Virus genome (UHGV): UHGV-0060065 | Strand: one strand, 5' to 3' | From: a virus | Length of the DNA stretch: 24,468 nucleotides | Shown: positions 9,188 through 14,192 of the stretch, one piece after another | How the letters are laid out: each line of letters begins with the position of its first letter | Numbering within the stretch: position 1 is the first letter of the stretch | Notes under the pieces: generated by a model | Database searches by the model: none | The model's input: only the letters and a program-made list of their open reading frames with translations | Told to the model about the DNA's origin: nothing | Made by a program: the position numbers and the translations under genes

Positions 9188-10147
9188 ATGAAAATTTGTA
9201 TCGACGACGGCTCCACCAACATCAAGCTGGCATGGACTGAGAACGGCGAACGCCGCAACGCCATCAGCCCGAACAGCTTCAAGTCGGAATGGTCTGCGCC
9301 GTTCGGTGGCACGCAGCCCGCGAACTACATGCTTGATGGCGTGCGCTATGGTTTTGATCCGGTCAGCGATCGCTTTGTCCAGACGACCGACACGCAATAC
9401 CAGTACAGCGATGTGAATGTCATTGCCATTCATCACGCGCTGGTCAAATCAGGCATCACGCCACAGGAGGTGGATGTGGTTGTCACCCTGCCACTGAGCG
9501 AGTATTTCGACACAAACGCACAGCCGGACATGGCCAACATCAACCGCAAAAAAGCGAACGTTATGCGTCCGGTGGAGTACCAGAACGGCGAAGCATTCAC
9601 TATCCGTAACGTGCGGGTTATGCCTGAATCCATTCCGGCTGGCTTTAAGGCACTGGCTGACATGAGTCCGTTTGAATCCCTGCTGATTGTGGATTTGGGC
9701 GGAACCACGCTGGATGTGGCAAAGGTTCAGGGACAACTGGCAGGTATCAGCCAGGTGTTTTGCGATCCACACGTAGGCGTTTCCCTGATGGCCGATGCCG
9801 TACTGTCGGTGATGGCCACTAACGGTATGCGTACCAGTCACCACATCGCCAACACCATTATCGAACATCGCCATGATGAAGCCTGGCTGCGCCAGCACAT
9901 CCACAATGGCGCGCATTACGACAGCCTGATGGCGGTTATTCGTGAAAAGGAAGAGACACTGAAACAACGCGTGATCCGCGCGCTGGCGGTTTTTTCGGGT
10001 TACGGGCGGGTGATGGTTGTAGGTGGAGGAGCAGAGATTGTGGCACCCGCTATCCGCGAAGCCTGCGGAGTTAATGCGACTTTCATCGCGGACGGGGTGC
10101 CACAGTTTGCTCTGGTTAATGGGCTGTACGCAATGGACAAGGAGTAA
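9188..10147 (+). CDS. parM: Actin-like segregation ATPase ParM/StbA family
   Basis: The translation matches remembered plasmid R1 ParM along its whole length (MKICIDDGSTNIKLAW, ISPNSFK, QYSDVNV, HHAL, VMPESIPAG, LLIVDLGGTTLD, VMVVGGGAE, LVNGLYAM). RBS AAGGAAAAG. Confidence 0.85.
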   Translation: MKICIDDGSTNIKLAWTENGERRNAISPNSFKSEWSAPFGGTQPANYMLDGVRYGFDPVSDRFVQTTDTQYQYSDVNVIAIHHALVKSGITPQEVDVVVTLPLSEYFDTNAQPDMANINRKKANVMRPVEYQNGEAFTIRNVRVMPESIPAGFKALADMSPFESLLIVDLGGTTLDVAKVQGQLAGISQVFCDPHVGVSLMADAVLSVMATNGMRTSHHIANTIIEHRHDEAWLRQHIHNGAHYDSLMAVIREKEETLKQRVIRALAVFSGYGRVMVVGGGAEIVAPAIREACGVNATFIADGVPQFALVNGLYAMDKE

Positions 10148-10151
10148 ACCA

Positions 10152-10463
10152 ATGACGACACCAACCAGACGGATAAGTTTCTATCTGAAGCCCGCCGCCG
10201 TCAAGAACGAAGGCGAAGCATGCGCCTGGCTGGACAGCCTTACACCAGAAGCCCGCAAAAACGGCCAACGTGTGGCTTTTCTGGCCGGGCTGGCACTTCT
10301 GAAAATGAATCCGGCAGAGGCTTACCGACTGGCTGCATGGGCTGACGATGAGGCGTTGTCGGTGACACAAACCAGGACAGAACGCCCCGCGTCACAGCCA
10401 GTATCAACCGCACAGATAACCAGTCAGATGGCCGGAAATATCCGGGCGTTATTTCCCGAATAA
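10152..10463 (+). CDS. parR: ParR/StbB-like ribbon-helix-helix centromere-binding protein (103 aa)
   Basis: An AAGGAG RBS sits 7 nt upstream of the ATG at 10152, which lies 5 nt after the parM stop. The N-terminus (RRISFYLKP...LDSLTPEARKNGQRVAFLAGLALL) and C-terminus (NIRALFPE) resemble R1 ParR. The ORF-track entry 10023..10463 includes a spurious N-terminal extension overlapping parM. Confidence 0.6.
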   Translation: MTTPTRRISFYLKPAAVKNEGEACAWLDSLTPEARKNGQRVAFLAGLALLKMNPAEAYRLAAWADDEALSVTQTRTERPASQPVSTAQITSQMAGNIRALFPE

Positions 10464-10922: not shown

Positions 10923-11447
10923 ATGAAAAAATACGAATACATGCTAATGAAAGAAGCACTGCGGGCTGGTCTGGCTCCCTGTCCTGTATCCGTAGAAGCT
11001 GTTGTTGGGAACACGATTTTCCGAACGCTGCGAAATCGCGTATCCGTGAAGATGATTCACCAACCACCCAAATCTACCAGCATGATCTATCTGCCGCTGC
11101 CCGAGGCTATCAAACTTATGCGTTCGCTGAAATTTGCGATTTGGATGCAGACACAACTCAACAAAGCGGTGCAAAACACCTTCGTTAAGAAACTGATGCC
11201 GGAGCTTGCTGCCAGAAGTGCAAAATGTACCAGACCCGCACTTCAATTTGATCTGTCATTGATTCAACAAGCTACGGAGGCAGAACTGTACCGCCTGTCA
11301 CCTCTCCATGATGCTCACACGGAAGCCTCAGAAATGTTCCGGCTCATGTTTCAATTTAATTTTGCCGTTCGACGCACACGCATTCAGGTCAATCGCATGA
11401 TGCAGGCGCAGGAAGAGCTGACGCAACACAAAGGAGGCAACCAGTGA
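10923..11447 (+). CDS. Hypothetical protein (174 aa), predicted mostly helical; likely co-transcribed with the ZBD protein
   Basis: ORF with a GAGGA RBS, 60 nt downstream of the ZBD gene. No motif was recognised. Confidence 0.55.
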   Translation: MKKYEYMLMKEALRAGLAPCPVSVEAVVGNTIFRTLRNRVSVKMIHQPPKSTSMIYLPLPEAIKLMRSLKFAIWMQTQLNKAVQNTFVKKLMPELAARSAKCTRPALQFDLSLIQQATEAELYRLSPLHDAHTEASEMFRLMFQFNFAVRRTRIQVNRMMQAQEELTQHKGGNQ

Positions 11448-11619
11448 GCAAAATTGACTATCAGGCATTACGCGAGGCGGCACAAAACTATCAATCGACG
11501 CTGGCGTGGTATGAGGTTGACGCGGGCTAGTTTTGCCGCAAGGATAATTCGTTTCAGCGGGTGATTTTTTGCGCTATCATTCCGGCAGTGGTTCACGATT
11601 ATTGGCAGGAAAGGCAATT

Positions 11620-12213
11620 ATGAGCAGTAAAAAAAATAAAATAACATCTATGGCCGCAGCGCTGGCGGTGGCTCTCGCCCCTGTTCCTGCCAGTAGCATT
11701 GTGCATCATGACTTATCAATCTCCCGGCACAGTACGTCTACGCTATCCCTCCAGGACGTAAAGGATTCTGTGGCATACCTTCCTATTGATGAGGCCACCA
11801 GTTATATGCTTAACCTGGCTGATAGGATGAAGACACACAGGGCAAACCTTCGCATCGAATGGGAAGAAAAGCAGATCCCTATTATTCTGAAAAATCAGAA
11901 AAAAGAGACTCAGGAAGGGTTTGAAAGCCTTTTCCGTCATATTGCGGTATGTGCAAGTTTTGTCGAGGCTGCAAGGGTTGCGCTGAAAAGCGTACCTGAA
12001 AGTAACGCGGAACTGAGAAAAGAGATTGTCGCTTTTGCTCGTTCCGCTGCGACGCTCCGCTATACGATTGAAGATATTTTATCCTTCATTGAAAGCACGC
12101 ATGTGCCGAAGAAAACTTCAGATGCTGATCTGGGTGTTACCGCCGATCAGGTTCGCGCACTTATCCGCAGTGAACATAAAAAGCTGGGCCTTAAAGATCC
12201 AACGTTCCATTAA
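11620..12213 (+). CDS. Hypothetical protein (198 aa) with hydrophobic Ala-rich N-terminus; candidate partner/antitoxin of the downstream YafO-like toxin
   Basis: The internal ATG at 11620 has an AGGAAAGG RBS; the ORF track starts earlier at 11569. The N-terminus (MSSKKNKITSMAAALAVALAPVPASS) is signal-peptide-like. It ends 9 nt before the toxin start. Confidence 0.5.
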   Translation: MSSKKNKITSMAAALAVALAPVPASSIVHHDLSISRHSTSTLSLQDVKDSVAYLPIDEATSYMLNLADRMKTHRANLRIEWEEKQIPIILKNQKKETQEGFESLFRHIAVCASFVEAARVALKSVPESNAELRKEIVAFARSAATLRYTIEDILSFIESTHVPKKTSDADLGVTADQVRALIRSEHKKLGLKDPTFH

Positions 12214-12222
12214 GGCAGGGCC

Positions 12223-12603
12223 ATGATTAAAGTCTCTGTCCACAATGACATAGAACTCCCCGCAGTTGCTCGTAAATATGCACATGCTTTGCAGTCATGG
12301 AAAAACGGCGGATCTTTACCCTCAGTCTTTGGCAACGAAGGGCAGTGGGAAGATAGCGGGCGTCTTCGTGATTCTTTTGTTTTTAAGATTCACATTCGTT
12401 TACCTGATGAACAGCCGTGGCCTGCAAAGCTACCTGCCGCCTCGCGTAAATCAAACAGTTATCTTGTTTACTCCCGCCATTTCTTATATCCAGATAAGTA
12501 TCAGCTAATCAGCATTATGACACCCAATGCGCATGAGTTAGCCCGTACATCCTACATGGCAGAAATTGAGCGCAGAGCAGAAGAGTTCCAGTCTTCTTTT
12601 TGA
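12223..12603 (+). CDS. YafO-like toxin (type II TA, ribosome-dependent mRNA interferase family), 126 aa
   Basis: Similar length to E. coli YafO, with shared motifs: GSLPSVFG vs GVLPDIFG, KIHIRLP vs HIHLANE, SYLVYSRHF vs AHLVYCQGAF, LISIMTPNAHELAR vs LIAILKPEPHKLAR, and the AEEF C-terminus. The alignment is from memory. Confidence 0.6.
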   Translation: MIKVSVHNDIELPAVARKYAHALQSWKNGGSLPSVFGNEGQWEDSGRLRDSFVFKIHIRLPDEQPWPAKLPAASRKSNSYLVYSRHFLYPDKYQLISIMTPNAHELARTSYMAEIERRAEEFQSSF

Positions 12604-12645
12604 GTTTTGCGACGACTATCTATCAATCCCTTACTAATCTGAAAA

Positions 12646-12672
12646 GCTGCCTTTTGAAGGCGGCTTTTCTTT
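12646..12672 (+). terminator. Intrinsic terminator after the YafO-like gene (GCTGCC-TTTTGAA-GGCGGC followed by TTTTCTTTC)
   Basis: GC-rich stem with one G-U pair followed by a T-rich tract, about 40 nt after the stop. An A-run precedes it, so it may act in both directions. Confidence 0.5.
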
Positions 12673-12759
12673 CTTCCTGGCCTTCTTTCTCTGTTGCACA
12701 ATAGTGCACAAATTTGCACAATTTTTTTGAACGACTTTTTACCCTTCCGGCCCGCATGG

Positions 12760-13000
12760 CGGCTGGATCCGTCAAGGATCCGTGCGCGCACAAAAAAACG
12801 CGCTTTTTCTGCGCGCAGGTGACGGGGGAACAGCCCGCGTTTCAGGGGGTAAATAGCATCCCCTGAATGATGTCGCAGCGACACAACAGAATGGCTGTCT
12901 TTCTCACGCTGAGCGTGAAGAATACGTGAGGGATTCTGATTTGATGGAGTGAAAGGTAAGGCCGTCAAAATCGCACTGAGGCGGCGAGAACATGCAGTCA
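12760..13000. other. cos / packaging region (candidate cohesive-end site and terminase-recognition repeats)
   Basis: The position between the cargo and the Q stop matches P2 cos. It is dense in repeats: GGATCCGT direct repeat, GTGCGCGCAC palindrome, a 13-bp imperfect inverted repeat GCGCGCACAAAAA/TTTTTCTGCGCGC, and TTCAGGGG-N11-CCCCTGAA. A GC-rich motif GAGGCGGCGAGAAC at about 12978-12992 partly resembles the P2 cos core as I remember it. Confidence 0.4.
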
Positions 13001-13145: not shown

Positions 13146-14192
13146 TCAGGATGTGGGCTGGGTATCTAACAGTGCGTAAGGGTTAAAGCGGATCACCTCT
13201 TCGCCAAGCCAGTCATTGATGTGCTTCATGGCCTCCATGACGGGCATCAGCTCGTTAATTGCGTAAACCCGCGCGGCCTTCTCCACATCACCAAACGCAC
13301 TTTTTTCGCCCGGCATCGCCCCCATCAGTTGCGGCGGAACGCGGTGCGCAGCCAGCACATCATCACGGGATGCCGCCTTAACATTCATGAACTCATCTTT
13401 TGCGGTGATCTGCTGGAACGGCAAAATTTGCACCCCCTCTTTGCCCCCGTTGGGCGCATGAATGAGCACGTTTTTAAACGCACCACCACCACGTGCCCCC
13501 TGTAGCGTTTCTTTCAGGGAGTCCATGCTTTCGCGGTTTACCTGCGCTGCACCGATGTAGATGATGCACCCGGCGTGGGATCCGTTGTCGTAGTACAGTT
13601 TTCTGAACATGTCCGCCGAATGAGAAAGGCTGGCCGAGAGTAATGCGCCAAGATATTCCGGCATGCCGTAGATTTCCTGGTTAATATCCGGATTCATCAG
13701 GTGGCACACTTTGCCAGGACGAAACTGGAACGCGTCCTTGCCATCCTGCACATACCACCATGATTCAAGATCGCTTCCGCGTCGCATGTATTTCGCCAGG
13801 GCGTGCCGTAATTTAAGCGGTTCGCCGAGCATATTGCTTCGAAGCTCAAGGAATGCGTTACCGAACACAAACCAGTCCAGCGCCAGCGCCGAGAAATCCT
13901 GCCGGGAAAGCAGCGGGTGCGGGATGTAGCAACCGAGTAATACATTGCGCTTAAAGTAAAGCGCAGACTGATGCCAGGACGTTTGCCGGGCAGCTCTTGC
14001 CAGACCGTACCAGTCCACCGGGGTTTCATACCACCGCCCGTTATCAGCACAGTACATATTGTCCAGCAGGTCATGCCCGGTCAGGCGATAAGGACCATCA
14101 AATGTGAATGCACTGAGCGATGATTCTTTCCTGAGCGCATCAGCGAGATCAATGCGTGAACTCATGCGCACTTTTTTATTTTTTCTGCTCAT
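13146..14192 (-). CDS. Q: Portal (capsid vertex) protein, P2 gpQ-like
   Basis: 348 aa, close to P2 Q in length. It sits immediately downstream of and overlapping terminase P on the minus strand, adjacent to cos. Confidence 0.88.
   Translation of the reverse strand: MSRKNKKVRMSSRIDLADALRKESSLSAFTFDGPYRLTGHDLLDNMYCADNGRWYETPVDWYGLARAARQTSWHQSALYFKRNVLLGCYIPHPLLSRQDFSALALDWFVFGNAFLELRSNMLGEPLKLRHALAKYMRRGSDLESWWYVQDGKDAFQFRPGKVCHLMNPDINQEIYGMPEYLGALLSASLSHSADMFRKLYYDNGSHAGCIIYIGAAQVNRESMDSLKETLQGARGGGAFKNVLIHAPNGGKEGVQILPFQQITAKDEFMNVKAASRDDVLAAHRVPPQLMGAMPGEKSAFGDVEKAARVYAINELMPVMEAMKHINDWLGEEVIRFNPYALLDTQPTS

Follow-up and report, generated by a model that had tools for sequence, protein, structure and literature searches.

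The Escherichia coli prophage sequence UHGV-0060065 (24,468 nucleotides [nt], hereafter the window) carries a gene for a YafO-family toxin that directly follows a gene for a 197-amino-acid (aa) protein, and comparison of the two genes across enterobacteria and their phages leads us to think that they are probably a prophage-borne type II-like toxin-antitoxin (TA) cassette, in which an antitoxin of a new kind would use its conserved termini, chiefly its C-terminal helix, to neutralise a YafO/RelE-fold mRNase. The prophage is P2-like and of the P88/Xuanwuvirus type. Both open reading frames (ORFs) lie on the plus strand where an earlier note, made from the letters of the window alone, had placed them, and the 9-nt gap that it reported is real, with the first stop codon at 12211–12213 and the second ATG at 12223. 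However, the upstream protein, which we call the partner, has 197 aa plus a stop codon rather than 198 aa, and the Prokaryotic Genome Annotation Pipeline (PGAP) annotates the identical 197-aa protein (WP_000095653.1).

The downstream protein is, as the earlier note held, YafO-like. The 126-aa ORF passes a YafO profile search, matching the Pfam family YafO_toxin (PF13957) over residues 25–123 with an E-value of 2.3e-27 and 95.5 bits (gathering cut-off, 25); it also matches PHROG 1651 and has a RelE/BECR-type fold. It is 34% identical to K-12 YafO over 106 residues and shares His57, Arg75 and His104 with it. Since it scores only 59.4 bits against the NCBIfam equivalog model for K-12 YafO (NF007377), for which the cut-off is 153, it is a diverged member of the YafO family and not an orthologue of the K-12 protein. 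Across K-12 YafO, the homologues of CUS-3, PhiR40, Flyfo and pJN2, and the subfamily of the window, G37, H57, L81, I98 and H104 are invariant and R75 is nearly so; these residues may have a catalytic role. Both genes are under purifying selection, with pairwise ratios of nonsynonymous to synonymous substitution (dN/dS) of 0.02–0.03 for the toxin and 0.14–0.29 for the partner. The toxin is slow-evolving and retains 55–62% identity where the partner retains only 23–27%.

The earlier note regarded the pairing of this toxin with a large upstream protein as unusual, which is misleading, as an upstream partner of ~200 aa is the rule among YafO genes carried by phages. Eighty loci in IMG/VR encode YafO homologues (29–100% identity), 73 of them with enough upstream DNA to be evaluated. 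All 73 have an ORF of 179–221 aa that ends within 16 nt of the toxin start, and none has the K-12 arrangement with an upstream ORF the size of YafN. These upstream partners belong to at least five sequence families. In CUS-3, PhiR40_1, the siphovirus Flyfo Tbat2_3 and the Klebsiella phage-plasmid pJN2-26, a hypothetical ORF of 179–205 aa lies directly upstream of a YafO homologue that is ~30% identical to ours. The partners in these named phages are assigned to separate PHROGs of unknown function; the family of the window matches no PHROG.

Within the partner family of the window, all 26 loci that have a full-length partner gene also have a YafO-subfamily gene directly 3′ to it, overlapping by up to 4 nt or separated by up to 11 nt. 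These loci span more than 15 enterobacterial genera and partner identities down to 23%. When partner homologues are the starting point, YafO is found directly downstream in Serratia (where the gene caller had overlooked it), Buttiauxella, Erwinia, Salmonella and a second E. coli type. When YafO-subfamily genes are the starting point, with one genome taken per species, a full-length partner is found directly upstream in 21 of 25 loci; one YafO-subfamily locus ends at a contig edge and was not evaluable. The partner and toxin genes are all that loci from other genera have in common.

The loci in which the pair has decayed are asymmetric. In Raoultella and in a metagenome-assembled genome of Pseudescherichia, an intact partner accompanies a toxin gene that is interrupted by an in-frame stop. 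Xenorhabdus bovienii and Proteus alimentorum have lost the partner and have a 5′-truncated toxin gene, and Serratia symbiotica has a partner pseudogene together with a toxin that lacks G37, H57 and H104. An intact toxin without an intact partner was never seen among the genome loci examined, five of which are decayed. This is the pattern expected if the partner is required to tolerate the toxin.

What kind of protein is the partner? Searches of Pfam, NCBIfam, PHROG and PADLOC returned no family match, and PDB sequences gave none with either phmmer or a profile. Foldseek comparison of the modelled structure with BFVD yielded nothing at an E-value of 0.001 or better, and the fold search returned only generic helical bundles. 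K-12 YafN, which the earlier note wrongly described as RelB/DinJ-like, is a 97-aa protein of the Phd/YefM type that matches PF02604; the partner does not match PF02604 and shows no similarity to YafN (hhalign probability, 1%). Thus, the claim that the partner has no recognisable antitoxin fold holds in every one of these comparisons. The family is also narrow, consisting of 23 clusters initially and 82 after a profile search. A profile search of 1.84 billion representatives returned 37 hits (50% identity representatives), all of them from the partner family itself, and all named sources are Enterobacterales. Using tblastn against 50,697 phage records, neither the window partner nor the Salmonella-branch partner had a match, and blastn against plasmids found none.

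NCBI names the proteins of a divergent branch of this family (~206 aa; P0080–P0136, e.g., P0083 of Salmonella, L032 5001–5612) “iron-sulfur cluster assembly scaffold protein SufA.” We rejected this identity, as no Fe-S or SufA model in NCBIfam or Pfam matches them. The name appears to be a misannotation that has spread, and the assembly collection indexes P0083 alone in ~3900 blocks.

An AlphaFold2 model of the partner, built from a 56-sequence alignment (predicted local distance difference test [pLDDT] 80; predicted template modelling score [pTM] 0.68), contains an N-terminal Ala-rich helix (residues 2–16), the LAPVPA strand, a linker that is disordered at residues 28–48, a bundle of three long helices (56–84, 95–124 and 130–159), a second linker and a C-terminal helix (175–188). 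Its only two strands are formed by residues 19–23 (LAPVP) and 51–55 (AYLPI). The two termini are the most conserved regions: sequence entropy is 0.10 for LAPVPA (residues 19–24), 1.22 for the preceding apolar helix and 1.47 for the C-terminal helix and motif, compared with 1.77 overall, and the central three-helix bundle is the most variable part (1.7–2.1). Positive selection in this bundle was not apparent from pairwise dN/dS. The hydrophobic Ala-rich N-terminus to which the earlier note drew attention (MSSKKNK-ITSMAAALAVALA-PVPA) is real and conserved at the protein level. Since this conservation persists down to 23% overall identity, the N-terminus is translated; an alternative downstream start codon was rejected because the N-terminal residues are conserved as protein.

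A C-terminal helix with the motif LI..[SE]H..LG..P.F/W recurs in partner families that are otherwise unalignable. Among 6277 six-frame ORFs from loci of other families, a profile of the final 38 positions found only the extreme C-termini of Flyfo-type partners (E-values 7e-4 to 0.02), and a profile of the remaining partner length found nothing in the same ORFs. In hhalign comparisons, the window family matched the Flyfo type over the C-terminal 58 columns (probability 76%, E-value 2.4e-5) and gave a weak collinear match to the PhiR40 type (probability 34%, E-value 4e-4). The same motif is present in CUS-3-type partners (...SHKRFGMEAPKW). Because the C-terminal element is shared across families by profile search, by hhalign and in the CUS-3 motif, the partner seems to belong to a loose superfamily, the constant feature of which would be a short C-terminal element matched to YafO. 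A modular layout with a short toxin-matched element is common in antitoxins, and the partner may be built in this way.

If the two genes encode a toxin and its antitoxin, how would they work? We envision an autonomous two-gene cassette that is exchanged horizontally as cargo in the cos-proximal variable locus of P2-like prophages. The downstream protein, a diverged YafO-family mRNA endonuclease of the RelE/BECR fold, would arrest translation when free, and the upstream 197-aa protein would be its dedicated neutralising partner. This protein would represent a previously undescribed superfamily of all-helical proteins of ~180–220 aa that, on phages, would replace the Phd/YefM-type YafN. It could hold the toxin via its C-terminal helix and motif, possibly with a contribution from the apolar N-terminal helix and the LAPVPA strand, and the fast-evolving three-helix bundle may do something else, for example contribute to stability, oligomerisation or sensing. 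The cassette would probably serve in abortive infection against other phages, in prophage retention or in both, with depletion or displacement of the partner as the trigger; such roles are suggested only by its position and mobility. The labels of a toxin-plus-sensor abortive-infection pair and of defence cargo, both used in the earlier note, are likewise drawn only from genomic position, and no PADLOC model matches. Its proposal of a new antitoxin class has the best comparative support, from synteny, decay asymmetry, the shared C-terminal motif and the lack of another candidate antitoxin in the cassette (Rfam, tandem repeats and conserved third ORFs), and we retain it as a putative assignment.

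Several points weigh against this interpretation. We infer toxicity, neutralisation, complex formation, the binding interface and the defence role from sequence. No HTH, RHH, AbrB or Phd domain was detected in the partner with Pfam or NCBIfam, and because it has neither a DNA-binding domain nor similarity to a known antitoxin, classical autoregulation is unsupported. PADLOC-DB v2 has no match at E-values up to 1 for the toxin, the partner or four neighbouring proteins. The sample of decayed loci is small, and the similarities between partner families are weak (34–76% in hhalign), with E-values that derive from single comparisons or from a small ORF set. Lastly, a partner with a Sec-like N-terminus, if exported efficiently, would be unable to sequester a toxin in the cytoplasm as an antitoxin normally does. 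Partners of the PhiR40 type are likewise signal-like at the N-terminus and, L069 (MKTNSLLKHCFAAILSGGILSVPSYSLA↓DV) among them, resemble classical signal peptides.

Export is also the basis of the main rival explanation, in which Sec genuinely exports the partner, which would be in the periplasm once cleaved or, in precursor form, only briefly in the cytoplasm, and which would be connected to YafO via export as a drained precursor-antitoxin or as an envelope sensor. We regard this as unlikely. It would explain, in addition to the appearance of the PhiR40-type partners, why the N-terminus is tripartite and signal-like in all 26 homologues, with a net charge of +1 to +5, an apolar stretch of 13–19 residues and small residues at −3 and −1 (candidate cleavage sites AVA↓LA or VPA↓SS), why the apolar core varies in sequence between the two family branches while keeping its hydrophobicity, and why it is followed by a poorly conserved, disordered 25-residue linker. 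It is also in keeping with a value of ~+6 kcal/mol, calculated by hand with the Hessa 2005 scale, which led us to reject a stable transmembrane anchor; because the apolar stretch is too short and too rich in Ala and Pro, a cleavable signal is favoured over an anchor. However, the apolar core and LAPVPA are the most conserved part of the partner, which is atypical for signal peptides. In the AlphaFold2 model, residues 11–20 have a pLDDT of 92 and the LAPVP strand adjoins strand 51–55, which is the only possible partner for it. Moreover, the CUS-3-type, pJN2-type and L103 partners are identically placed yet have no signal-like N-terminus, and a cytoplasmic toxin requires a cytoplasmic neutraliser.

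The 174-aa ORF immediately upstream of the cassette (10923–11447, plus strand), which matches no family, also bears on export. This ORF and the partner family have in common an N-terminal helix-LAPxPxS-linker-YLPxxEA module (hhalign probability 67%, E-value 5e-5; BLASTP E-value 1e-4), which in the ORF reads AGLAPCPVS ... IYLPLPEA. Since the first helix of this paralogue is charged and not signal-like, LAPVPA is better viewed as a fold element than as a cleavage region only. A simple cleaved signal is thus disfavoured, because the N-terminal segment is the most conserved, is modelled confidently, is missing in several partner families and is charged in the paralogue. Between a structural or interface role in the cytoplasm and genuine export of the partner N-terminus, we lean somewhat towards the former.

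A combination of the two ideas, which we consider more doubtful still, is an antitoxin with a working Sec signal. In this case, the precursor would neutralise YafO and export would drain the free partner, such that a block in synthesis, as in host shut-off by a phage, would free the toxin without the need for a protease. If true, this would be a new way to make an antitoxin labile and would couple a TA switch to protein export. The signal-like N-terminus may prove either trivial or mechanistically new.

Less likely again is that the two genes are independent morons that travel together, with the 197-aa protein acting, for example, in superinfection exclusion or at the envelope, and with a YafO that is tolerated because its activity is weak, its expression is low or a host factor such as chromosomal YafN neutralises it. 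Independence would sit well with the signal-like N-terminus of the partner and with its lack of a detectable antitoxin fold or DNA-binding domain, and E. coli hosts do carry yafN. However, it would leave unexplained why adjacency and tight spacing never vary in ~100 loci that come from several phage types and have partners diverged as far as detection allows, why partner families that otherwise share little have a C-terminal motif in common, and why the toxin has kept its invariant His and Arg residues at such a low dN/dS; the decay asymmetry fits dependency, and YafN shows no similarity to the partner. Finally, we think it very unlikely that the true antitoxin lies elsewhere in the cassette, encoded by a small ORF or consisting of an antisense or type III RNA, with the 197-aa protein as an accessory chaperone, adaptor or regulator: although the 5′ leader and the ~180–250 nt from the terminator to the cassette end have no assigned function, and although three-component RelE-superfamily systems of toxin, antitoxin and chaperone exist (PMC11980606), Rfam gave no match at a permissive threshold, tandem repeats are absent from the operon and a repeat check of the leader was negative, no extra ORF is conserved between diverged loci, the two genes are just 9 nt apart, and the loci of other genera share these two genes only.

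The reading that we favour, a TA cassette carried as exchangeable cargo, agrees with how the pair is distributed. The prophage encodes an integrase, an intact 940-aa gpA replication protein, ParM and a ParR-like protein; portal and terminase genes follow on the minus strand, and then capsid, lysis and tail genes. The parM/parR-like genes flank the YafO pair on one side and the portal gene does so on the other. The earlier note called this site the edge of a hotspot, which is borne out: the prophage backbone is matched in 1433 of 5426 complete E. coli genomes, and the 1.15 kb that holds both ORFs is matched in only 7. Other P88-like prophages and phages of E. coli cease to match the window before the cassette and match it again from ~12686. 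Between 11511 and 12851, DNA identity to P2-like prophages of Mixta mediterraneensis, Izhakiella australiensis and Serratia marcescens (L006, L007 and L008) is 89.6%–95.2%, and in the flanking portal and terminase genes it is only 69%–72%. Because the cassettes are 90–95% identical and the backbones only ~70%, the cassette has been exchanged recently across genera, between diverged P2-like prophages. Within it, the toxin gene exceeds the partner gene 2.6–5.8-fold in the rate of synonymous substitution (dS), a hint that the history of the cassette is mosaic.

Other occupants of the site are also informative. The ETEC4090 prophage has a full 174-aa ead/Ea22-like gene (PF13935) at the cassette site and no YafO cassette. 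In other P88-like prophages, the 174-aa ORF described above overlaps a full ead/Ea22-like gene by 4 nt, which suggests that these two genes form a second two-gene module on the same N-terminal scaffold. In Erwinia pyrifoliae, a pair that is 60% identical occupies the same gpA-to-portal site next to hicAB; here (L004/L005, 4656–6986), hicA and hicB lie directly upstream of the partner and YafO genes, placing two TA modules in one slot, and in L005 only hicA was called. Other family members are found after ogr, after tail genes or beside the integrase, always at the prophage edge. The earlier note also placed the pair next to cos. Such a position is consistent with the start of a linear P88-type phage record, which falls ~140 nt beyond the stop codon of YafO, but the P2 cos 19-mer is absent from the window.

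Features of the cassette and its neighbours are given in Table 1. The layout is that of a generic type II TA module, with two small co-oriented genes, tight spacing, a promoter-like block and a terminator. A putative promoter at 11552–11580 is suggested by the block TTTGCG(C/T)TATC(A/C)T (TTTGCGCTATCAT), which is found 40–50 nt upstream of the partner start in six loci (L001, L003, L004, L014, L017 and L022) with partners that are ~25% identical; a strict sigma-70 consensus scan called no promoter. Past the terminator, within the cassette and near the presumed cos end, an imperfect direct repeat (TGCACAATAG) is present in 2.8 copies at 12695–12722.

Table 1. Positions in the window of the YafO cassette, its elements and the adjoining genes
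Feature	Position	Strand	Description or basis
Partition genes, parM/parR-like	9188–10463	+	Left neighbours of the variable stretch
ead/Ea22-like gene remnant, first 24 codons	11444–11515	+	Left cassette junction; PGAP partial gene in the 99.2% identical CDE6306 prophage
Exchangeable cassette	11511–12851		Promoter, partner gene, YafO gene, terminator and ~180 nt beyond; from DNA identity contrast
Promoter-like element	11552–11580	+	TTTCAG, 17 nt, TATCAT; block conserved across diverged loci
Shine-Dalgarno-like sequence	11607–11614	+	AGGAAAGG, 5 nt before ATG 11620; read from sequence
Partner gene, putative antitoxin	11620–12213	+	197 aa; ATG 11620, stop codon 12211–12213
Partner residues 1–24	11620–11691	+	K-rich start, 13-residue Ala-rich apolar stretch and invariant LAPVPA; features across 26 homologues
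Partner residues 175–197	12142–12213	+	C-terminal helix and motif VRALIRSEHKKLGLKDPTFH; proposed toxin-binding element; second most conserved region
YafO-family toxin gene	12223–12603	+	126 aa; PF13957 match
Intrinsic-terminator-like hairpin	12641–12669	+	13 pairs and T-rich tail, operon end; sequence scan
Portal gene	13146–14192	−	Right neighbour of the variable stretch

How does the cassette compare with known systems? It resembles K-12 yafN-yafO in that the toxin matches PF13957 with conserved His and Arg positions and in that the partner comes first and the toxin second, with tight spacing. It differs in that the partner is 197 aa, all-helical and without a Phd/YefM domain, and in being phage cargo, whereas the K-12 pair belongs to the SOS-regulated dinB operon. 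The antitoxin folds of HigB2-HigA2, RelBE and YafQ-DinJ (HTH/Xre, RHH, Phd/YefM and AbrB) are undetected in the partner. The pairs of CUS-3, PhiR40_1, Flyfo Tbat2_3 and pJN2-26 have the same architecture and are also phage cargo, and those of Flyfo and CUS-3 share the C-terminal motif, but their toxins are only ~30% identical to that of the window and their partner cores are unalignable by ordinary search. As with the cargo of P2-like hotspots, such as Old and Tin in P2 (Rousset et al., 2022; PMC9122126), the locus is variable, lies by cos and portal, is rarely occupied by this cassette in a common backbone and undergoes exchange; the text of that paper makes no mention of YafO. HigBAC has a RelE-superfamily toxin that is used in abortive infection and triggered by antitoxin destabilisation (PMC11980606), and its SecB-like chaperone offers a conceptual link between TA systems and export. 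Unlike HigBAC, which has three genes, a HigA-type antitoxin and this chaperone, the cassette has two genes and no chaperone.

YafO has been treated as a classical E. coli toxin with YafN as its antitoxin. In a 2025 review of the RelE/ParE superfamily, K-12 YafO is the sole experimentally confirmed member of PF_YafO, and other antitoxins are not discussed (PMC11980606); in a survey of Photorhabdus TA systems, YafO appears merely as a search category (PMC13617665). We found no description of a ~200-aa YafO partner in the searchable literature. Our comparison indicates that phage YafO is instead tied to helical proteins of ~200 aa. If these partners are confirmed as antitoxins, they would constitute a new superfamily of antitoxins in which the toxin-binding element is C-terminal, short and portable. 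Confirmation would also correct a widespread misannotation, add a tractable two-gene candidate to the defence cargo of P2-like hotspots and, as no YafO-family structure has been solved, provide a first YafO-family complex for structural work.

Some of the other loci and neighbouring genes deserve mention. In the P22-like phage CUS-3 (L040, 1408–2411), the YafO pair lies between mnt and hkcB, adjoining a DNA-transfer gene. We take this to be the position of the superinfection-exclusion gene sieA in P22, and it may be another moron or defence slot. The 179-aa YafO partner of PhiR40_1 (L041, 222–761) is annotated as “YafM antitoxin.” K-12 yafM is presumably an unrelated gene, and the label appears to be an annotation artefact.

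On the left of the variable stretch of the window, the ParM/StbA actin-like ATPase and a Plasmid_stab_B (ParR-like) protein make up a plasmid-type partition system in what is an integrated P2-like prophage. These genes are followed by a 111-aa phage ORF (10527–10862, plus strand) that consists only of a helical N-terminal part and a ClpX-type C4 zinc finger (PF06689, E-value 3e-17; PHROG 6797), without the AAA+ module. The product of this ORF could act as a mimic of the N-domain of ClpX or titrate it. The same ORF has an internal stop in strain CDE6306 and is annotated there as a pseudogene.

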